From assembly GCA_030841025.1 (NCBI GenBank), contig JAVEDJ010000309.1:1-43549 (forward strand): 43,549 bases of DNA. The letters are read 5' to 3'. This stretch comes from Actinomycetota bacterium (GTDB lineage: Bacteria > Actinomycetota > Actinomycetes > JACCUZ01). Positions 17,391-43,466 of this stretch are shown in pieces (within the stretch, counting starts at the first letter, position 1; every line of letters starts with the position of its first letter). A program made the translations under genes and the position numbers. The notes beneath the pieces were generated by a model, which saw nothing but the letters and a program-made list of their open reading frames with translations, was not told the origin of the DNA and did not search any database.

Positions 17391-17435
17391 GGCGGCCACA
17401 CCGGCCAGGGTGCCTTGGCCTGGGACAACAGGCAA

Positions 17436-17470
17436 GAGAGAGGGGCCGCCCACCGGGCGGCCCCTCTCTC
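17436..17470. terminator. Intrinsic terminator, probably bidirectional
   Basis: Perfect 16-bp stem GAGAGAGGGGCCGCCC-ACC-GGGCGGCCCCTCTCTC between convergent genes. Confidence 0.85.
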
Positions 17471-17488
17471 GTGCTCTTTCCGTCGGCG

Positions 17489-17959
17489 TCAGCGCTTTGC
17501 GGCGCGCTTCGCCGTGGACTTCTTGGCGGTCCGCTTGGCAGCGGTCTTGCGGGTCGTCGTCTTCTTCGCCGTGGCCTTCTTGGCCGTCCGCTTGGCCGCG
17601 GTCTTGCGCGTGGTCGCCTTCTTGGCGGTGCGCTTCGCCGCGGTCTTCTTGGCCGTTGTCTTCTTGGCCGTTGTCTTCTTCGCCGCGGTCTTCTTGGTGG
17701 CGCGCTTGGTTGCAGCCTTCTTGGCGGTCCGCTTGGCTGCGGTCTTCTTGGTCGCGCGGGTCGCTGCAGCCTTCTTCGCGGTGCGCTTGGCTGCGGTCTT
17801 CTTGGTCGCGCGGGTTGCGGCTGCCTTCTTGGCGCCGCGCTTGGCCGCAGTCTTCTTGGCTGCCGACTTCTTGGTCGCTCGTGCGGTGGTGGTCTTCCGC
17901 GTGGAACTGCTTGCGGCTTGAGTCACCTTCGTTGTGTTCTCTTCTTCTTTGGCCGGCAC
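17489..17959 (-). CDS. Histone H1-like Lys/Ala/Thr-rich basic protein
   Basis: GGAGG RBS before GTG 17959; almost entirely KKTAAK/KRTAKK/TRAT repeats; strong terminator downstream. Confidence 0.85.
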   Translation of the reverse strand: MPAKEEENTTKVTQAASSSTRKTTTARATKKSAAKKTAAKRGAKKAAATRATKKTAAKRTAKKAAATRATKKTAAKRTAKKAATKRATKKTAAKKTTAKKTTAKKTAAKRTAKKATTRKTAAKRTAKKATAKKTTTRKTAAKRTAKKSTAKRAAKR

Positions 17960-22424: not shown

Positions 22425-24995
22425 CTAGTGCGAGCGAAGATCTCCGTTGCCGGTACGCCGAAGCGGCGTGGGGGCCGCTGCGGGGTCGTCGCCCGACCCG
22501 GCCTCCGGCGTCCGCGTCTGATGCGGTTCGGTCTGCTGATGAAGTCGCGTGGCGAGGCTCGAGAAGTGCTCGGCGAGCCAACGGGTCATCTCGTCGGCCG
22601 GCATCGGCCGCGCGAGCAGGTAGCCCTGGATCAGGTCGCAGCCGAGCTCCTGGAGGATGATCCAGCCGGCCTCGTCCTCGACTCCTTCGGCGACGACACG
22701 CAGGCCGAGGTCGTGGCCGAGGCTGACGACCGCCTTGACGATCGCGAGGTCGTCGCTGTCATGGGCCAGGTTCGCCACGAACTCGCGGTCGATCTTTACT
22801 TCGTGCACCGGCAGGTTGCGCAGCCGGGTGAGCGACGAGTAGCCCGTGCCGAAGTCGTCGACGGACAGGCTCAGGCCCAGGTCGACCATCCGTTCCAGAG
22901 CGGTGACGGCGCGTTCGGGGTCGGAGACGATGGCGCTCTCGGTGACCTCGAGCTTGAGCAGTGCGGCGGGCAGGTTGGCGCGGACCAGCAGTCGGGCGAT
23001 GACGTCGGCCAGCTCGGGCTCGAGCAGGTTGCGCATCGAGACGTTGACCGCCATCTCCACGGGTGTGCCCGCGTCACGCCACGCGGCGCACTGCCGGATG
23101 GCGGTCTCGACGACGAAACGGGTCAGCGGCCGGATCAGGCCGGTGTGCTCGGCCAGCGGGATGAACTCGTCCGGGGCGACGTTGCCCCAGATCGGGTGCT
23201 TCCAGCGCAGCAGTGCCTCGACGCCGGCGACGCGGCCGGTGTCGGGTGCGGCCTGCGGCTGGTAGTGCAGCACGAGCGTGCGCTCGTCGAGCGCACGTGC
23301 CAGGTCGCTGATCAGTGACAGGCGACGTGCGCTGTACGGGTCGCGGTCCGCGGAGTAGTGAGCGACTCCGGCGAGCCGGCGCTTGGCGTCGTACATCGCC
23401 ACCTCGGCGCGACGCAGCAGCAGAGCCGCGGAGGACCCGTCGTGGGGGGCGGTGGCGATGCCGATGCTCCCGGTGACGTCGAGCTCGACCTCACCGAGGT
23501 AGAACGGGTTGCGAAAGTCGCGGCTGATGCGCTGCACCATGCCCTCGATGTGCACGTCGTCGTCGCCGAGGAGTACGGCGAACTCGTCGCCGCCCAGACG
23601 CGCGACGAAGGTCTCCTCGTGCTCGAGCCGCCGCAGCCGCTGGCCTACCTGCTCGATCAGCTGGTCACCGACGTCGTGGCCGAGCGTGTCGTTGACCTCC
23701 TTGAAGCGGTCGAGGTCCATCAGCAGCACTGTCGCCGAGCCGGTGGCGAGCAGGCGCTTCTCCAGCCGCTGCTGGAAGTGCAGCCGGTTGGGCAGGCCGG
23801 TGAGGTGGTCGTGCAGCGACAGGTGCTCGGTCTCGGCAGCCGCCCGCCGGGCCCGGTCGACCAGACCGCTGTTCGCGAGCGCAACGCCGGCGTGCCCGGC
23901 GAGGGCCTCGAACAGCCGGGCATCCTCCCGGTCGAAGGTGCTCACATCGTCGAGGCGGTCGGCCACGATGAGCACCGCGGTCACCTTGCCGGCTTCGCGC
24001 AGCGGCGCGGCCATGCCGTCGCTGTGGCCGCTGCGATGGAGTGCCGCATTGGTGTGCTGCCGACCGGCCCGCTCGATGCGGATGACCTTGCCCTCGCAGG
24101 CCTCACGCCACCAGAAGTCGGGGTCCGCGCCCGGGCCCGGGCAGAGCACGACCTCCGCGTGCTGGGCGCGCAGCAGGCCCCGGGCTTCCCGGACGATGGT
24201 CTCGATCACCGTCTCGTCCGTCACGGCTTCGTCGACAGACCGGGTGAACTGGTAGAGCAGGTCCAGGCGGCCGTAGCGCAGGCGCTGCACGTGGTAGCCG
24301 CGGTAGAGGACGTAGCAGAGGACGGCGAGAACGGCGAGCAATGCCAGTGCGGCCGGGTCGCGCTCGAGCACGAGTGCCGTGATGAGGCCGAGGTCGGTCA
24401 CGACCAAGGTCCCGGCCGCGCCGGTGACGAGGTTGCCTCGGAGGAGGCCGAGATCTGCCCGGCCCTCCCGCAAGGAGATGACCCCGAAGACGGCGACGGT
24501 CGAGACGATGTGGACGAGCTCCGTCGTGACGAGGATGGCCAGCCAAGACTTGGGGTCGCTGGGGTTCGCCGGGATCTGCAGGAATCTCAGCATCCCGCCA
24601 AAAGTTATTGCCGCGACCGTGGCCTGTGTCAGCCAGAGGGCCACATTGAAGGCGACCTTGACGAGCGCCGCACGGTAGAGCAACGCCATCGCGGCGCCCA
24701 CGCCGACCACACCCGCGAGCACGAGCTGGTCGACAGTCAAGAAGAACAGGCCGAGTACGAGCGGCGCCTCATTGAACGACAGCGAGTAGTTCTCGCGCCC
24801 GAACGGTACGTGGATCACAAATCGCTCGCTCAGGGCGAGCATCACCGCCAGGACCGGCCACGAGATGTGGCTGCTGAGCGGCGTCAGATCGGGCGCGAGG
24901 AACCACAACAAGGCGCCAACGACCGTGAGTCCGGCCGTCAACAGCCAGACCCGAAGGTCCGGCGAGGGACGGGTCACCTGGCCAGTGTGGAGCAT
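22425..24995 (-). CDS. Membrane-anchored diguanylate cyclase/phosphodiesterase (multi-TM sensor + GAF + GGDEF + EAL)
   Basis: About 7-8 TM segments, GAF-like region, DHLTGLPNR, DLDRFKEVND.LGH.VGD, RLGGDEF, GVEALLRW, DDFGTGYSSL, EVKID, AEGVE, QGY. Confidence 0.95.
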   Translation of the reverse strand: MLHTGQVTRPSPDLRVWLLTAGLTVVGALLWFLAPDLTPLSSHISWPVLAVMLALSERFVIHVPFGRENYSLSFNEAPLVLGLFFLTVDQLVLAGVVGVGAAMALLYRAALVKVAFNVALWLTQATVAAITFGGMLRFLQIPANPSDPKSWLAILVTTELVHIVSTVAVFGVISLREGRADLGLLRGNLVTGAAGTLVVTDLGLITALVLERDPAALALLAVLAVLCYVLYRGYHVQRLRYGRLDLLYQFTRSVDEAVTDETVIETIVREARGLLRAQHAEVVLCPGPGADPDFWWREACEGKVIRIERAGRQHTNAALHRSGHSDGMAAPLREAGKVTAVLIVADRLDDVSTFDREDARLFEALAGHAGVALANSGLVDRARRAAAETEHLSLHDHLTGLPNRLHFQQRLEKRLLATGSATVLLMDLDRFKEVNDTLGHDVGDQLIEQVGQRLRRLEHEETFVARLGGDEFAVLLGDDDVHIEGMVQRISRDFRNPFYLGEVELDVTGSIGIATAPHDGSSAALLLRRAEVAMYDAKRRLAGVAHYSADRDPYSARRLSLISDLARALDERTLVLHYQPQAAPDTGRVAGVEALLRWKHPIWGNVAPDEFIPLAEHTGLIRPLTRFVVETAIRQCAAWRDAGTPVEMAVNVSMRNLLEPELADVIARLLVRANLPAALLKLEVTESAIVSDPERAVTALERMVDLGLSLSVDDFGTGYSSLTRLRNLPVHEVKIDREFVANLAHDSDDLAIVKAVVSLGHDLGLRVVAEGVEDEAGWIILQELGCDLIQGYLLARPMPADEMTRWLAEHFSSLATRLHQQTEPHQTRTPEAGSGDDPAAAPTPLRRTGNGDLRSH

Positions 24996-25068
24996 CGACC
25001 ATTTGTACGCAGCGAAACGGCCGTGTTGCGCTCCGTGAGGAGCGCCGCACGGCTGCTGCGCGGTGAGC

Positions 25069-25188
25069 CTAGTGCCAGCCGGTCCCGGGGGTGATCAGGT
25101 GCCAGCCGGTGCCGGGGGTGATCAGGTGCCAGCCGGTGCCGGGGGTGATGAGGTGCCAGCCCGTGCCGGGAGTCTTGGTGTCAGACAT
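25069..25188 (-). CDS. 39-aa tandem-repeat peptide MSDTKTPGTGWHLITPGTGWHLITPGTGWHLITPGTGWH
   Basis: Hand translation; GGAG 6 nt before ATG 25188; TAG directly after the last His; all four differences between repeat units are synonymous third-position changes in this frame. Confidence 0.8.
   Translation of the reverse strand: MSDTKTPGTGWHLITPGTGWHLITPGTGWHLITPGTGWH
25072..25173. repeat. 27-bp tandem repeat, about 3.8 copies
   Basis: Unit GTGCCAGCCGGTGCCGGGGGTGATCAG, contiguous with no spacers. Confidence 0.95.
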
Positions 25189-25374
25189 GAGGAGCTCCAA
25201 AGTTGGTCAATACGCCTGTGGGGGTCGGCGTAAGTCCGACTATGGAGAGCGCATCACCACGGAACGCCCATGTGATGCCGTGCTGAATGTAAAACCTTTG
25301 ACTATCGGCATAGTTCGCCGTGACCTTGAGCCCCTTTTGCGCCCGATTTAGGGCAGATCGCACCGGATGTCCAC

Positions 25375-25390
25375 GTAACGTGGCCGAAAC
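25375..25390 (+). promoter_or_regulatory. GlnR box upstream of glnA2
   Basis: GTAAC-GTGGCC-GAAAC fits the gTnAc-n6-GaAAc consensus; CAAGAT lies 7 nt before the ATG. Confidence 0.75.
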
Positions 25391-25413
25391 ACCAGCCCGG
25401 CAAGATCGGCGGC

Positions 25414-26751
25414 ATGGACAAGCAGCAGGAATTCGTGCTCCGGACGCTCGAGGAGCGCGACATCCGCTTCGTGCGGCTGTGGTTCACCGACGTGCTGGGT
25501 TTCCTCAAGTCGGTAGCCATCGCACCGGCGGAGCTCGAGGGCGCCTTCACCGAGGGCATCGGGTTCGACGGCTCCGCGATCGAGGGCTTCGCGCGCGTCT
25601 ACGAGTCCGACATGCTGGCCAAGCCCGACCCCAGCACCTTCCAGGTGCTCCCATGGCGCTCGGAGATGCCCGGCAGTGCCCGGATGTTCTGCGACATCCT
25701 GATGCCCGACGGCACGCCGTCGTACGCGGACCCGCGTCATGTGCTCAAGCGCACGCTGAACAAGGCCGCCGACCTGGGCTTCTCCTTCTACACCCACCCG
25801 GAGATCGAGTTCTTCCTGTTCGAGGGGAGCCCGGTCCCCGGCCAGACGCCGGTCCCGATCGACTCCGGTGGCTACTTCGACCACGCCCCTCACGGGATCG
25901 GCCACGACTTCCGGCGTGACGCGATCACGATGCTCGAGTCGATGGGCATCTCGGTGGAGTTCAGCCACCACGAGGGCGCGCCCGGGCAGCAGGAGATCGA
26001 CCTGCGCTACGCCGACGCGCTGTCGACGGCCGACAACATCATGACCTTCCGCCTGGTGATGAAGGAGGTGGCGCTCGAGCAGAAGGTCTTCGCGTCGTTC
26101 ATGCCCAAGCCGTTCACCGACCATCCCGGCTCGGGCATGCACACGCACCTGTCGTTGTTCGAGGGCGACCGCAACGCCTTCTTCGAGGCGGGGGCGCAGT
26201 ATCAGCTGTCCAAGGTCGGGCGGGCCTTCATCGCCGGCCTCCTGCGCCATGCTCCGGAGATCACCGCGGTCACCAACCTGTGGGTCAACTCCTACAAACG
26301 ACTCTCGGGCGGCGGCGAGGCTCCGTCCTACGTCTCGTGGGGTCACAACAACCGGTCCGCCCTGGTCCGCGTGCCCATGTACAAGCCGAGCAAGGGCGGC
26401 TCCACCAGGGTCGAGATCCGCTCGCCGGACTCGGCGTGCAATCCGTACCTCGCGTTCGCCGTGATGCTTGCTGCCGGGCTCAAGGGCATCGAGGAGAACT
26501 ACGTGCTGCCGGAGGGCGCCGAGGACAACGTCTGGACGCTCACCGATGGTGAGCGACGCGCGCTGGGCATCACGCCGTTGCCGTCCAACCTCGCTGACGC
26601 GATCCGCACCATGGAGGGCAGCGAGCTCGTCGCCGAGACGCTGGGCGAGCACGTCTTCGACTTCTTCCTGCGCAACAAGCGCCAGGAGTGGCTGGACTAC
26701 CGCCGTCAGGTGACGCCCTACGAGCTCGACCGCTACCTGCCGGTCCTCTAG
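25414..26751 (+). CDS. glnA2: Glutamine synthetase-like enzyme, GlnA2 type (GSI-alpha-like)
   Basis: MDKQQEFVLRTLEERDIRFVRLWFTD, FDGSAI, HHEGAPGQQEI, FMPKPF...GSGMHTH, NRSALVR, EIRSPD. Confidence 0.93.
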   Translation: MDKQQEFVLRTLEERDIRFVRLWFTDVLGFLKSVAIAPAELEGAFTEGIGFDGSAIEGFARVYESDMLAKPDPSTFQVLPWRSEMPGSARMFCDILMPDGTPSYADPRHVLKRTLNKAADLGFSFYTHPEIEFFLFEGSPVPGQTPVPIDSGGYFDHAPHGIGHDFRRDAITMLESMGISVEFSHHEGAPGQQEIDLRYADALSTADNIMTFRLVMKEVALEQKVFASFMPKPFTDHPGSGMHTHLSLFEGDRNAFFEAGAQYQLSKVGRAFIAGLLRHAPEITAVTNLWVNSYKRLSGGGEAPSYVSWGHNNRSALVRVPMYKPSKGGSTRVEIRSPDSACNPYLAFAVMLAAGLKGIEENYVLPEGAEDNVWTLTDGERRALGITPLPSNLADAIRTMEGSELVAETLGEHVFDFFLRNKRQEWLDYRRQVTPYELDRYLPVL

Positions 26752-32080: not shown

Positions 32081-33403
32081 ATGGACTTGGCTCGTCGCCA
32101 CCTCCCGGCCGCCGCGCGCGGCCTGGCCGCCACCGTCGCCGTCGTACTCGCGACCGTGCTCCTGCCGGCTCCCGCGGCGCCTGCCGCCACCGGTGTCACG
32201 GTGCCGAGGCAGTTCTTCGGCCAGCACGACAGCCGGCCGGAATCGTGGCCACGGGTGACCGTCGGATCGGTGCGGCTCTGGGACGCCGGGGTCACCTGGC
32301 GCGACATCGAACGGACGCCGGGCAGCTACGACTGGTCCCGACTCGACACGCTGGTCCGGGTCGCCCGGGCCAAGGGTGCCGAGATCACCCTGACCCTCGG
32401 CCAGACGCCCACCTTCCGGGTCGCCCAGCCATCGACGCAGCGGCCCGGCTGCGGCGAGGCCCCCACCAATCCCTACTGCGCTCGCTACGGGGCCGGGGCC
32501 ACGAGCATGCCGAACACGAACGCCTGGATCGCGTACGTGAAGGAGGTCGCCGCCCGGTATCGGGGCCGGATCGCGGCGCTGCAGGTGTGGAACGAGTCCA
32601 ACGTCCCCGGCTTCTGGAGCGGCACGCAGGCACAGATGGCCGAGCTGACTTATCTGGCCAAGAGAGCAGTCGGCAGCGGCATGCAGATCGTCTCGCCCAG
32701 CTTCGTGGGCCGGACGAACCGGAGCCTGATCAGCGCCTACTTCGCGGCCAAGCCGCACGGCCAACCGGTGCGCAACTTCTTCGACAAGGTGGGGCTCTCG
32801 CTCTACCCGGCGCCGACAGGAACCCCGGAGACGTCCACTGAGGACACCTTTGGCCCGCTCAAGGTCGTGCAGCGAATCCTGAAGAAGTACAAGGTCAACA
32901 AGCCCATCTGGAACACCGAGATCAACTACGGGCTCGCGTCCGGTGGCACGGGAGCCAAGCCGCCGACGATCAGCGCCGACCGGCAGGCCGCCTATGTCGT
33001 GCGCACCTACCTGCTCAACGCCGACGCCCGGATCCAGCGAGTGTTCTGGTACGCCTGGGACCTGCAGAGCATCGGCAACACGTACCTGAGCACCAGCAGC
33101 GGGTCACCGACGCTGGCAGGCAAGGCGGTCGGACTGACCGCGAGCTGGGTGGCCAAGTCGCGGCTCAAGAGCTGCAGCCGCGCGACCAAGGGCGCCACCA
33201 AGGGTCTCTTCGTCTGCACGCTGACCTACCGCGGCGGCGTGAAGCGCATCTACTGGAACACGCACCCGACGAAACGGGTCAAGGTGACGATGCCGAAGAC
33301 GGCGACCTACGGAATCAGCCTGTACGGTAAGAAAACGAAGATCAAGGGCGGCTCGAAGAAGTACGTCGACTATCGCCCGCTGCTGGTGCGCTCCAAGAAG
33401 TAG
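32081..33403 (+). CDS. Secreted clan GH-A glycoside hydrolase (GH39/GH5-like), paralog 1
   Basis: Signal peptide; VRLWDAGVTW, TLGQTP, QVWNESN (acid/base), IWNTEINYG (nucleophile), FWYAWD; Lys-rich C-terminus. Confidence 0.85.
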   Translation: MDLARRHLPAAARGLAATVAVVLATVLLPAPAAPAATGVTVPRQFFGQHDSRPESWPRVTVGSVRLWDAGVTWRDIERTPGSYDWSRLDTLVRVARAKGAEITLTLGQTPTFRVAQPSTQRPGCGEAPTNPYCARYGAGATSMPNTNAWIAYVKEVAARYRGRIAALQVWNESNVPGFWSGTQAQMAELTYLAKRAVGSGMQIVSPSFVGRTNRSLISAYFAAKPHGQPVRNFFDKVGLSLYPAPTGTPETSTEDTFGPLKVVQRILKKYKVNKPIWNTEINYGLASGGTGAKPPTISADRQAAYVVRTYLLNADARIQRVFWYAWDLQSIGNTYLSTSSGSPTLAGKAVGLTASWVAKSRLKSCSRATKGATKGLFVCTLTYRGGVKRIYWNTHPTKRVKVTMPKTATYGISLYGKKTKIKGGSKKYVDYRPLLVRSKK

Positions 33404-33454
33404 GGGGTAAGCGACCAGCAGACTCGATCCGTGCGCAACCACTCTGGGAGATCC

Positions 33455-34738
33455 GTGACTTTTCCGATCCATCCGTTCAGCCGTCCAGCTCTGACGCGAG
33501 CCTCGGTGCTGGGCGTGTCCGTGGTGCTGGCCGCATCTCTGCTGCCAGCGGCCTCCGCAGCGGCGGCACCTGCGCCGATCACGAGCCGCTACTTCGGCGT
33601 CTCCGACGGCGCGCCGGCCGGCACCTCCGCGGCGGGCTTTCCTCGGGCACCTGTGGGCTCGTTGCGGCTCTGGGACTCGGGTGTCACCTGGAAAGAGCTC
33701 GAGGTCGCGAAGAACAAGTGGAACTGGACCAAGCTGGACGCGATCGTCGCGACGGCGCGCGCCAAGGGTGCGAAACCGATGCTGGTTCTCGGCCAGACTC
33801 CCCGCTTCCACTCGACGCGGCCCGGATTGGTCGGGTTCTACGGCAGTGGTTCGCCCACGATGCCGAAGCTGTACTACTGGAAGCGCTATGTAGCCAAGGT
33901 CGCGCAACGATACGGGACCAAGCTCGACTACCAGGTGTGGAACGAGCCGAACGTCAGCGGGATGTGGCGCGGTACTCCCGCCCAGATGGCGCAGCTCACC
34001 GCCGTCACCCGGCAGGTCCTCAAGGCCTGGGCCCCTGGGGCGACGCTGGTGGCACCGTCGTTCCCGGTGCGTTTGGTGACTCAGCGGTCGTGGGTGTCCC
34101 GCTACTACGCGCAGCGGACCGGAGGACGCCCGGTCTCCGCCTACGTCGACGTCGTCTCGCTCAACCTCTACCCGCTGGAGAACGATCGCCCGGAAGAGTC
34201 GATGCAGCTGCTGCGGGCGTCCCGCCAGATCCTGTCCTCGCGCGGTGTGCGCGGAAAGCCGATCTGGAACACGGAGATCAACTACGGCCTCAACGGCCGG
34301 GGTACCGGTGCCAAGAACATCTCCCGGCGGCGAGAGGCGGCGTACGTCGCACGCACCTACGTGCTCAACGCCGCGAACAACGTCAAGCGCGTCTACTGGT
34401 ACGCCTGGGACCTGCAGCGTCTGGGCAACACGGAGATGACCTACCGCAACGGCGCGACGCTCGCGCCCGGCGGCAGGGCATTCGGCGTCGTCTCCTCGTG
34501 GCTGGTCGGCGGCCGGATGCGTGGGTGCACCGTGAGCTCCGCCGGGACGTACACGTGCACGGTGACCTACTCCGGTGGCGTCAAGCGCATCTACTGGAAC
34601 CCGTCGCGCGCGAGCACCATCCGCACCGTCGGCTCGGCGACCTACTACCAGGGCGCGCTGGGTGCGCAGACGCGGCTGCGCGGCAAGAAGGCTCTTCGGG
34701 TCAGCTACTCGCCCGTCATGGTGCGCTCGCGGCGGTAG
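33455..34738 (+). CDS. Secreted clan GH-A glycoside hydrolase (GH39/GH5-like), paralog 2
   Basis: GGGAG RBS before GTG 33455; signal peptide; LRLWDSGVTW, YQVWNEPN, IWNTEINYG, YWYAWD. Confidence 0.85.
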   Translation: MTFPIHPFSRPALTRASVLGVSVVLAASLLPAASAAAAPAPITSRYFGVSDGAPAGTSAAGFPRAPVGSLRLWDSGVTWKELEVAKNKWNWTKLDAIVATARAKGAKPMLVLGQTPRFHSTRPGLVGFYGSGSPTMPKLYYWKRYVAKVAQRYGTKLDYQVWNEPNVSGMWRGTPAQMAQLTAVTRQVLKAWAPGATLVAPSFPVRLVTQRSWVSRYYAQRTGGRPVSAYVDVVSLNLYPLENDRPEESMQLLRASRQILSSRGVRGKPIWNTEINYGLNGRGTGAKNISRRREAAYVARTYVLNAANNVKRVYWYAWDLQRLGNTEMTYRNGATLAPGGRAFGVVSSWLVGGRMRGCTVSSAGTYTCTVTYSGGVKRIYWNPSRASTIRTVGSATYYQGALGAQTRLRGKKALRVSYSPVMVRSRR

Positions 34739-42530: not shown

Positions 42531-43466
42531 TCAGGCAGGAGCGCCCGTGCGTGCGGCCACAGCCTGCTGGTAGAGCCGGCCGGCGCGGTAGGAGGAGCGG
42601 ACCAGGGGGCCCGACATCACACCGGCGTACCCGATCTGCTCGGCCTCCGCCTGCAGCTCGACGAACTCCTCGGGCCTGACCCAGCGCACCACGGGGTGAT
42701 GGCGGGGGGAGGGCCGGAGGTACTGGGTGATGGTGATCAGCTCGCAGCCAGCCCCGTGCAGGTCGCGCAGCGCCTCGCTCACCTCGCTGCGCTCCTCGCC
42801 CATGCCGAGGATGAGGTTGGACTTGGTGACCAGGCCCGCCGTTCTCGCCTGACGGATGACCTCGAGCGAGCGCTCGTAGCGGAAGCCCGGGCGGATGCGC
42901 CGAAAGATGCGCGGAACCGTCTCGATGTTGTGCGCGAGCACCTCGGGCTGGGAGCCGAACACCTCGGCCAGCTGCTCGGGCTTGGCGTCGAAGTCAGGGA
43001 TCAACAGCTCAACACCGGTGCCGGCGGTCCGCGCATGGATCTGCCGTACGGTCTCGGCGTACAGCCAGGCGCCACCGTCGGGCAGGTCGTCACGCGCCAC
43101 GCCGGTCACCGTCGCGTAGCGCAGCCCCATCGTGGCCACCGACTCGGCGACCCGCCGCGGTTCGTCGCGGTCGAGCTCGGCCGGCTTGCCGGTGTCGATC
43201 TGGCAGAAGTCGCAGCGGCGGGTGCACTGGTCACCGCCGATGAGGAACGTCGCCTCGCGGTCCTCCCAGCACTCGAAGATGTTGGGGCAACCGGCCTCCT
43301 CGCACACCGTGTGCAGACCCTCGCGCTTGACCAGCGACTTGAGCTCGGAGTACTCCGGACCCATCCGGGCGCGGGTCTTGATCCAGCTCGGCTTCTTCTC
43401 GATGGGCGTCTCGCTGTTGCGGACCTCGAGACGGAGCAGCTTGCGTCCCTCCGGTGCGATCGTCAC
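42531..43466 (-). CDS. lipA: Lipoyl synthase
   Basis: [12 protein letters not shown] and CTRRCDFC cluster motifs, TQYLRPS, VRSSY. Confidence 0.98.

Follow-up and report, generated by a model that had tools for sequence, protein, structure and literature searches.

Does a 39-codon open reading frame (ORF) that consists almost entirely of repeats encode a working protein, and, if it does, what could such a protein be for? The question is raised by positions 25,069 to 25,188 of contig JAVEDJ010000309.1 (assembly GCA_030841025.1) from an Actinomycetota bacterium, whose full 43,549 nucleotides are referred to here as the window. On the minus strand, an ATG at 25188-25186 opens 39 codons that close with TAG at 25071-25069, and the product, MSDTKTPGTGWHLITPGTGWHLITPGTGWHLITPGTGWH, is laid out as MSDTK-TPGTGWH-(LITPGTGWH)x3-stop. 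It represents a new small-protein family with a firm genomic partnership to an enzyme of cyclic di-GMP (c-di-GMP) turnover; a peptide-signal mechanism for this family is plausible.

The repeat ORF and its relatives

An earlier reading made from the letters alone (the sequence-only reading) had described an ORF of four TPGTGWH cores with a GGAG Shine-Dalgarno (SD) sequence and a stop at a core boundary, and re-reading confirmed each of these points (Table 1). The strand, the partner gene downstream and the lack of a signal peptide are additions to that reading. The repeat array at 25072-25170 has a period of 27, 3.7 copies, 95% matches and a score of 177 in Tandem Repeats Finder. Exactly four differences separate its units (ACT/ACC, ACG/ACC, CTC/CTG and GGG/GGC), all at third positions and, as had been stated before, all silent in the frame of the ORF. 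Only 81 of the 306 single changes possible in the repeat are synonymous, and four silent changes out of four would be expected by chance with p ~0.005. The remaining five frames either carry stops inside the units or render the units unequal. The G+C content of third codon positions (GC3) is 0.95 in the ORF frame; on the same strand, the two alternative frames have values of 0.51 and 0.67. An alternative start, TTG at 25200, would give 43 residues; since this longer reading would swallow the SD sequence, ATG 25188 appears to be the more likely start.

The silent differences on their own are thin evidence, because the array is young (95% identity), and it is the relatives that carry more of the weight for coding status. 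No family for the small repeat proteins was found in Pfam, NCBIfam or the ESM Atlas, the 39-residue peptide itself has no NCBIfam match, and Rfam returned only a chance microRNA match (E 0.73) for 24000-26000. The peptide contains no hydrophobic segment, signal or membrane helix after its MSDTK start. A genome-wide search for further ORFs of this kind, which the sequence-only reading had proposed, found no second one in the 4.09-Mb assembly (G000; 433 contigs, 70% GC).

A DNA search of 41 related genomes recovered the conserved start region of the neighbouring glutamine synthetase gene and one repeat match, in genome G012. There, an ORF at the equivalent position ends in AGNGWHKSGTTVAGNGWHKTLLGNGWH directly before its stop, with a hydrophobic helix ahead of it. 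In seven more genera the gap between the glutamine synthetase gene and the GGDEF-EAL gene, which encodes the c-di-GMP enzyme, holds a like ORF with the cores AGTSWH, AGASWN, AGATWN, AASIWN, AGASWH or AGAVWN. The starts of these relatives are preceded by GGAG, GGGAG or AGGAG SD sequences 5-9 nt before the ATG.

Additionally, a DNA pattern of three GWH cores matched 8 times among the 39 genomes of the taxonomic family; the matches fall in 7 genomes, in 6 of them at the syntenic site. Two genomes flagged as unpublished (G016 and G043) are included in the tallies for this family. A match of the DNA search in another unpublished genome, G030, lay inside an unrelated coding region and was dropped. 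We also set aside a (GWH)x7 array in genome G021, which is non-syntenic and sits in a genome without a receptor match; this 9-bp repeat (L045, G021:C25:19694-19753, minus strand) adjoins a chemotaxis-like gene.

Protein searches extended the family further. A word-based search with the 66-residue G012 protein found 33 predicted proteins of 55-99 residues; among the 18 that were read, 16 were intact, with 2-4 GNGWH cores each. A profile search of 1.84 billion representatives gave 23 matches at E <= 0.001, including 19 family-like small proteins with cores such as ASNGWQ, SNGWK and AGAGWR. Four longer, unrelated repeat proteins (P0048, P0051, P0054 and P0055) were left out of the family counts. 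One of them, P0054, is a 182-residue metagenomic protein with a signal peptide and five copies of KR-VIRPTDGWH; it resembles eukaryotic repeat precursors processed by Kex2, and its GWH ending is probably convergent.

The small ORF is linked to the enzyme. When 185,579 species, each represented by one genome, were scanned for two motifs of the N-terminal domain of the enzyme, 34 loci came up, all in uncultured Actinomycetota metagenome-assembled genomes (MAGs). A repeat-core small ORF lies directly upstream on the same strand in 33 of them, and the 34th has just 200 nt of upstream sequence, so that the syntenic ORF is present at every assessable locus. A hydrophobic helix of ~20 residues is encoded by 29 of these 33 ORFs, following an Arg-containing N-terminus and followed by small residues and Asp. 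Three of the ORFs have broken N-termini (L051, L075 and L081), which are probably assembly errors. One other ORF resembles that of the window in having no helix: L057 reads MQHVLSPLTT and then four TPGGAWH units up to the stop, with an AGGAG SD sequence. A profile of the helix-bearing form matches 32 of the 39 genomes of the taxonomic family, with no match in G000 or G044, and the N-terminal domain of the enzyme, as orthologue or paralogue, is found in 37 of the 39.

The cores themselves point to selection on the protein. Comparing the 5-residue cores within each of 32 genes, we counted 77 synonymous and 2 non-synonymous distinct-codon changes; therefore, the identity of the cores is kept by selection and not by recent gene conversion alone. 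The four units of L057 differ only silently. Within a gene the copies are nearly all identical, and 16 different cores occur across the 32 genes. The consensus of 209 cores from 61 distinct proteins is A-G-x-x-W-[H/N]: the Trp is invariant, and it is followed by H (126 cores) or N (74) in most and by Q (4), R (3) or K (2) in the rest. The protein-level selection proposed by the sequence-only reading is strongly supported.

These data bear directly on the suggestion that the array is a neutral intergenic minisatellite with an accidental ORF. Such an origin would agree with the 95% identity of the four 27-bp units, which makes the array young in this genome, and with short-read contigs that break inside it. 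Homologous ORFs read in the same frame sense, with an SD sequence and conserved W-[H/N] cores, nevertheless occur in at least 29 genera-level lineages, and the 77:2 synonymous bias and the high GC3 are those of a coding sequence. The minisatellite reading is effectively refuted by the relatives' ORFs and this bias, and has next to no chance of being correct. We are highly confident that the 39-codon ORF is a real gene under protein-level selection, and the small repeat proteins are a previously undescribed family.

The 61 proteins carry 2-6 copies (31 have three and 23 have four), with 6-17 residues from Trp to Trp and a single case of 26, and 43 of them end exactly at a core. Lys is the commonest residue after a core and stands at +2 after 76 of 166 internal cores. 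With this varying spacing, two to six copies and so many proteins ending at a core, the arrangement resembles a linear motif more than a repeat that folds.

The partner enzyme and the possible role of the cores

What might such a motif act on? The gene downstream of the ORF scores above the Pfam cutoffs for EAL (238.7 bits, cutoff 31.3, E 7e-71), GGDEF (135.7 bits, cutoff 23.8, E 2e-39) and GAF_2 (34 bits, cutoff 28.6, E 4e-8); the GGDEF and EAL domains, both above their gathering scores, place its product among the GGDEF-EAL proteins of c-di-GMP turnover. Its 230 N-terminal residues are hydrophobic, and the whole is described as 7TM-GAF-GGDEF-EAL, that is, with seven transmembrane (TM) helices before these domains.

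An AlphaFold2 model of residues 1-400, built from a 28-row alignment, reached a mean predicted local distance difference test (pLDDT) score of 82.9. Helices are modelled at 14-33, 46-58, 76-85, 88-106, 111-139, 148-177, 182-212 and 216-260, before the GAF domain, and the most conserved motif, H-x-P-F-G-R-x-N (residues 60-73), is modelled as a beta-hairpin. We scanned the model with VIA-align against 48,161 Protein Data Bank (PDB) representatives. Residues 213-396 matched GAF domains, with Z reaching 16.2. Among the matches listed for residues 45-218, membrane proteins were represented solely by S-components of energy-coupling factor (ECF) transporters (12 of 50), with Z 10.3-13.7 over 146-181 aligned residues. 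The best of them was 4huq_S (Z 13.7, root-mean-square deviation 3.6, 155 of 164 residues aligned), and the others included 4m5c_A (Z 12.5), 5x3x_M (Z 11.5), FolT, RibU, ThiT, BioY and BtuM. In this model, then, the membrane domain probably has an S-component-like fold, short of being established. The ligands that S-components take up from outside are small and often aromatic, and this habit would fit a Trp-containing peptide as ligand. A complex prediction for residues 1-400 with the 39-residue peptide scored 0.01 and is evidence neither way. We find it likely that the small-ORF family is a functional partner of the adjacent enzyme.

The fold also touches on another proposal of the sequence-only reading, a peptide that binds a metal or cofactor through His and Trp. 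Four His residues stand beside Trp within 39 residues, and S-component-like domains of the CbiM/NikM type, such as 4m5c_A and 5x3x_M, bind Ni or Co. However, the His is not conserved, being replaced by Asn in 74 of the 209 cores and in others by Gln, Arg or Lys, and the cores contain no Cys, Asp or Glu ligands. Metal or cofactor binding is hardly credible as the function of the family.

A quick maximum-likelihood tree of the enzymes (first 400 residues, 28 rows) was evaluated with the Shimodaira-Hasegawa-like approximate likelihood-ratio test (SH-aLRT) only. It groups the window with the helix-bearing loci L053 and L050 (support 89 and 93) and places L057 outside the 7-row group of the window, inside a 9-row clade (support 99). 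The helix is absent in G000 and present in G001, and likewise absent in G044 and present in the unpublished G043. Since the tree sets L057 apart from the helix-bearing neighbours of the window, the export helix was probably lost twice, each time within a genus. Both helix-less forms consist of four T-P-G-x-x-W-H units, and a shared origin by gene replacement is one alternative.

In the same alignment, at receptor column 109 (window 24669-24671), which follows the invariant R108, N occurs in 16 of the 18 receptors that have W-N cores beside them and in 0 of the 10 that have W-H cores (R-N-PPIK as opposed to R-[A/S/G/D/H]), and the two core types separate there with no overlap. Two W-H receptors inside the W-N clade, L063 and L080, have H at this column. 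As the split otherwise follows the tree across the 28 rows, with only the L063/L080 clade departing from it, the pattern is mostly one of phylogeny; residue 109 is a candidate specificity contact, offered as a lead only.

Paralogues of the enzyme, 1-5 of which occur in most genomes of the family and none in G000 and G001, are accompanied by related motifs. We examined the regions upstream of 20 paralogues; the loci of this kind are L119 and L120, both in genome G013, and L099-L118. At 11 loci (group A), pentapeptide arrays of the type (GATWA)n with up to 11 copies lie upstream; in 10 of the 11 they end a long open frame, and at L108 no such ending was found. The only such frame that was scanned, in G013, encodes 610 residues, with an N-terminus that is signal-like and a domain of the S8 subtilase family (3e-45 in Pfam). 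All 11 loci additionally have, after the array and just before the paralogue, a helix-less ORF of 30-37 residues ending in PGATWV, PGASWV or PGASWI. In group B, the long upstream frame directly adjoins the paralogue and has (GKSWS)n, (GKAWA)n or (GRSWA)n as its end, and the G013 copy matches subtilase models. Others carry (ANRWS)n, (RARWS)n, (GSSWA)n or (GAAWT)n arrays. The array tails at L119 (G013:C1:965500-973500) and L120 (G013:C1:3278500-3286500) match no Pfam family. Thus, this receptor family is found together with G-x-x-W motifs of more than one format, carried by secreted or small proteins, and the P-G-x-x-W-H cores of the window resemble the PGATWV type.

The mechanism that we favour is a multi-copy peptide signal for the neighbouring c-di-GMP enzyme. 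The ORF of the window would be a signal-less member of a family dedicated to the membrane enzyme encoded downstream, and the protein a multi-copy pro-peptide. In most species it would be exported by its N-terminal signal or anchor helix and cut into identical Trp-peptides of 5-7 residues, the last of which would need no C-terminal cut because the protein ends there. The peptides, or cores still linked, would be bound by the S-component-like membrane domain, and binding would shift the balance between synthesis and breakdown of c-di-GMP. Species specificity would be set by the two variable residues before the Trp together with the H or N after it, and copy number would set the dose. The protein of the window, having lost its export helix as L057 has, would either get out by some other route or work from within on the cell that makes it. 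We infer translation, export, cleavage, binding and the effect on c-di-GMP alike, and the mechanism as a whole is put forward tentatively, with slightly less than even odds of being right.

The same cores could act without being cut. In an unprocessed multivalent partner, the repeated Trp motifs would bind several equivalent sites at once, such as the protomers of an oligomeric enzyme, a common ligand or the membrane interface; the protein would be tethered by its helix in most species and soluble in the window, and its action would be akin to that of small accessory proteins by which sensor kinases are tuned. Synteny and selection speak for this reading just as they do for the favoured one. 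Moreover, the helix of ~20 residues is more anchor-like than a typical signal peptide, the helix-less proteins of the window and L057 are easily explained if the target can be reached from the cytoplasm, and the protease tails at the paralogous loci show the motif working within a large protein. On the other hand, spacings of 6-17, two to six copies and 43 of 61 endings at a core suit released peptides and would be needless for a scaffold, and the free C-terminal carboxylate right after H or N looks selected. If the anchored motifs lie outside, as the N-terminal Arg with its suggestion of an N-in/C-out orientation would have it, soluble cytoplasmic variants would miss that site. A multivalent partner is the main rival of the favoured mechanism, though a less likely one.

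The sequence-only reading had likened the layout to a multi-core peptide precursor. Among the readings of the layout this is the one with the best support, given the identical cores, the variable spacers, the 2-6 copies and the frequent ending at a core; no maturation enzyme is encoded in the window. The proposal has a specific form, in which the ORF encodes the precursor of a ribosomally synthesized peptide with post-translational modifications (RiPP): enzymes encoded elsewhere would modify the cores, for example by Trp cross-links, and the natural product would be unrelated to the neighbouring enzyme. Multi-core layouts with invariant aromatic residues are typical of several RiPP classes, and the family fits this description. 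The S8 proteases at the paralogous loci are related to cyanobactin proteases, though their 44.6 bits against the PatA/PatG model fall far short of its cutoff of 421. Nevertheless, Pfam found no maturase among 33 ORFs of the 43.5-kb window, a search that did not extend to such enzymes elsewhere in the genome. The sole radical S-adenosylmethionine (SAM) protein of the window is lipoyl synthase (Radical_SAM and LIAS_N, 42534-43466), and the same 33 ORFs include no P450, YcaO, cyclase, lanthionine synthetase, prenyltransferase or dedicated protease or transporter. The constant neighbour in 33 of 33 loci is a signalling and not a tailoring enzyme, and Sec-type N-termini, which most relatives have, are unusual for bacterial RiPP leaders and fit poorly. 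A RiPP precursor is improbable.

Several points weigh against a secreted and processed signal for the neighbouring enzyme and have to be set beside the arguments for it. The protein of the window has neither signal nor membrane helix, no hydrophobic ORF lies upstream of it in any frame, and assembly G000 contains no protease with a Trp array and no second receptor; export and processing are therefore without visible machinery in this genome. Nor is a protease or transporter conserved at the locus linked to glnA2. Multivalent binding by an uncut protein could be served just as well by identical cores. At the paralogous loci, the GATW motif of group A is identical across genera, so that diversification is not general to the theme. 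The structural argument has its own weaknesses: the Z scores are borderline, as helical bundles can reach ~13 by chance; the membrane domain has no significant Pfam family (1 of 9 members matched ECF_trnsprt, at E 0.49); and the model does not settle the orientation of the sensor domain in the membrane. As for the counts, the genomes are related, so that independence is overstated, and all are uncultured MAGs, with three ORFs N-terminally broken. Finally, a reversed-pattern control for the three GWH cores gave 7 matches in 4 genomes, so the DNA pattern alone is non-specific, and the case therefore rests on synteny and protein features.

The peptide signal may be part of something broader. This would be a new kind of Actinomycetota peptide signalling in which lineage-specific Trp-peptides of 5-7 residues, from several sources, are bound by an S-component-like domain that gates GGDEF-EAL. 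Their sources would be multi-copy pro-peptides and, at the paralogous loci, S8 protease tails or mini-ORFs ending in PGATWV; the signal-less variants would represent a recent switch, made on two occasions within genera, to a signal that is private or exported in a different way. So wide a class is doubtful at present.

Surroundings, transcripts and soil sequences

Table 1. Positions of the ORF, its cores and the neighbouring features in the window
Feature	Position	Strand	Basis or remark
39-residue peptide coding sequence, MSDTK + 4 cores	25072..25188	-	Stop TAG 25069-25071; homologues found in relatives
GGAG Shine-Dalgarno sequence	25195..25198	-	6-nt spacer to ATG; sequence reading
Core 1, TPGTGWH	25153..25173	-	
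Core 2, TPGTGWH	25126..25146	-	LI spacer 25147-25152 precedes
Core 3, TPGTGWH	25099..25119	-	
Core 4, TPGTGWH, C-terminus of the protein	25072..25092	-	Stop directly after
Partner gene, 856-residue membrane protein, multi-helix N-terminal domain + GAF, GGDEF, EAL	22425..24995	-	Pfam, model, fold search, orthologues
Glutamine synthetase, glnA2-like, divergent neighbour	25414..26751	+	Pfam, synteny; conserved synteny anchor, not claimed as part of the system
GC-rich stem-loop just past the stop of the ORF; possible terminator or stabiliser of a small transcript	25007..25061	-	Folding
TACAAA, putative -10-like box 6 nt before the partner start codon	25002..25007	-	Sequence reading

The partner gene follows the small ORF after 73 nt, and nadE lies on its far side. 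On the other side, the glutamine synthetase gene is succeeded by genes for a class-I amidotransferase and by glnE; the rest of the window consists of housekeeping genes. The stem-loop between the ORF and the partner gene folds with -43.2 kcal/mol (z -3.9), a value that 0 of 200 shuffled sequences reached. It has no T-run and is not listed by a terminator scan, and in the minimum free energy (MFE) fold, the only fold examined, it forms one strong hairpin after the stop without pairing with the ORF. Counting that of the window, 8 of 33 intergenic regions have a hairpin of z <= -3. A promoter and terminator scan of 24900-25450 found no promoter-like site (sigma-70 consensus) and one terminator-like site, inside the downstream gene. 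Because the -10-like box lies so close to the start codon, the partner enzyme may have a separate, leaderless mRNA; boxes resembling CACAAT or GACAAT are found at the matching position in relatives.

This arrangement had suggested to the sequence-only reading a cis-acting leader peptide, in which ribosomes stalling at Trp-His codons under Trp or His shortage would control read-through of the hairpin into the downstream gene. Leader ORFs rich in Cys are known in mycobacteria, and the four W-H codon pairs, the strong hairpin right after the stop and a next gene on the same strand at so short a distance are what such a leader would show. The relatives contradict it, however: His is Asn in 74 of 209 cores and Gln, Arg or Lys in 9, a membrane helix is encoded in 29 of 33, and the strong selection on the protein around the Trp would be needless for a stalling leader. 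The gene downstream is unconnected with the metabolism of Trp or His and apparently has its own -10 box at the start codon, and the hairpin lacks a T-run and, in the MFE fold, pairing with the ORF, with strong hairpins in only a minority of the intergenic regions. A leader function is highly improbable.

Upstream of the ORF, a GTAAC-n6-GAAAC motif stands at 25375-25390 on the plus strand, 24 nt before the start of the glutamine synthetase gene, and appears to fit the GlnR box consensus. Between the two genes, DNA conservation with relatives is confined to the 47 nt around it (identity of 76-91%, 8 genomes). The divergent promoter of the small ORF may share nitrogen control with the glutamine synthetase gene.

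The locus is present in public soil metagenomes, with 20 runs from 17 studies among the matches listed. Contigs of soil DNA from three runs break inside the repeat, and no variant is listed within the four cores in the metagenome contigs. The 5-residue leader carries two variants, D3E (25180 G>C) and K5N (25174 C>G), which are the majority form in runs X2 and X3. The contigs of a soil metatranscriptome (run X19) cover only the glutamine synthetase part, 25413-25650, and are uninformative on the small ORF.

Elsewhere in the window, a complex tandem repeat at 17507-17878 has periods of 15, 27, 54 and 99. Its reverse complement would encode Ala/Lys-rich repeats of the kind found in actinobacterial histone-like proteins; the plus-strand ORF at 17415-17918 has no Pfam match. 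Two adjacent plus-strand ORFs of ~440 residues each (32081-33400 and 33431-34735) have GC3 of 0.87-0.90 and a strong coding signal, and neither matches a Pfam family at E <= 1e-5.

Known systems and significance

Among the papers listed by literature searches on the motifs and on small repeat proteins encoded next to GGDEF-EAL proteins, none was relevant to this family. The nearest analogues are the Phr pro-peptides of Bacillus, among them forms in which the autoinducer is duplicated within the gene, in some cases with every copy the same (PMC5199041). As in the Rap-Phr systems of the RRNPP type, the small gene adjoins that of the receptor, and most family members have a Sec-type N-terminus. 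The two also have in common a short core at the very C-terminus, several and sometimes identical copies, and cores that vary by lineage; identical multi-copy cores are, in contrast, the rule here (57 of 61 proteins with at least three) and not a transient state. Unlike the cytoplasmic tetratricopeptide repeat (TPR) receptors of those systems, the receptor here is a membrane c-di-GMP enzyme, and the phylum is Actinomycetota. The member in the window has no export signal, whereas 29 of 33 relatives have a hydrophobic segment. No TPR receptor of the Rap, NprR, PlcR, PrgX or AimR type was found among the 33 scanned ORFs of the window. The PhrK model (phero_PhrK_fam) gave a relative 14.3 bits against a cutoff of 35, on the hydrophobic helix only, and indicates no sequence relation. 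In the favoured reading, the family would work like Phr pro-peptides; it is not a member of them, since the match fails on the class of receptor, on the curated model and, in the case of the window, on the signal peptide too.

Other repeat precursors share single traits. Fungal precursors processed by Kex2, of the alpha-factor type, have a signal peptide and tandem identical cores separated by spacers, and a basic residue often follows the core here too (the K at +2); those are eukaryotic secretory products with dibasic sites, and no homology is implied. The cyanobactin precursor PatE also contains several cores, and subtilase-type proteases accompany the motif at the paralogous loci; unlike PatE, however, the family has no tailoring enzymes at or near the locus, its leader is Sec-type or absent, and its constant neighbour is a signalling enzyme.

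A very small, often membrane-anchored or periplasmic protein encoded beside a membrane sensor is likewise seen in DbfQ-DbfRS. Another small accessory protein, MgrB, is encoded beside PhoQ, the sensor that it regulates. Neither system is known to have tandem identical cores or lineage-dependent core switching, and their partners are histidine kinases. The amino acid-sensing leader peptides trpL and hisL are short ORFs rich in Trp or His codons that precede a hairpin. The ORF of the window is similarly rich in these codons, lies upstream of a gene and is followed by a hairpin, but its His codons are not conserved, the proteins of its relatives are membrane proteins, and Trp and His have no bearing on the gene downstream. 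As for the partner, its predicted fold is like that of the ECF S-components (FolT, RibU, ThiT, BioY, BtuM and CbiM/NikM), which bind small ligands; it differs from them in its extra helices before and after, its fusion to GAF-GGDEF-EAL and the lack of a significant sequence match.

Peptide signalling between cells is textbook knowledge for Firmicutes and, to our knowledge, essentially undescribed for Actinomycetota, and we know of no c-di-GMP enzyme that senses a peptide signal directly. It is worth stressing that an unannotated ORF of 39 codons can be a conserved gene. The family would assign a candidate ligand class to an unannotated membrane sensor domain and would link this domain to S8 proteases with Trp-pentapeptide tails. 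Its cores, kept identical within a gene by purifying selection and replaced wholesale between species, form an evolutionary signature of unusual clarity, by which a receptor-ligand specificity code becomes directly testable with synthetic peptides. If the broader class of signalling outlined above is true, these Actinomycetota would have a peptide pheromone wired straight into c-di-GMP.

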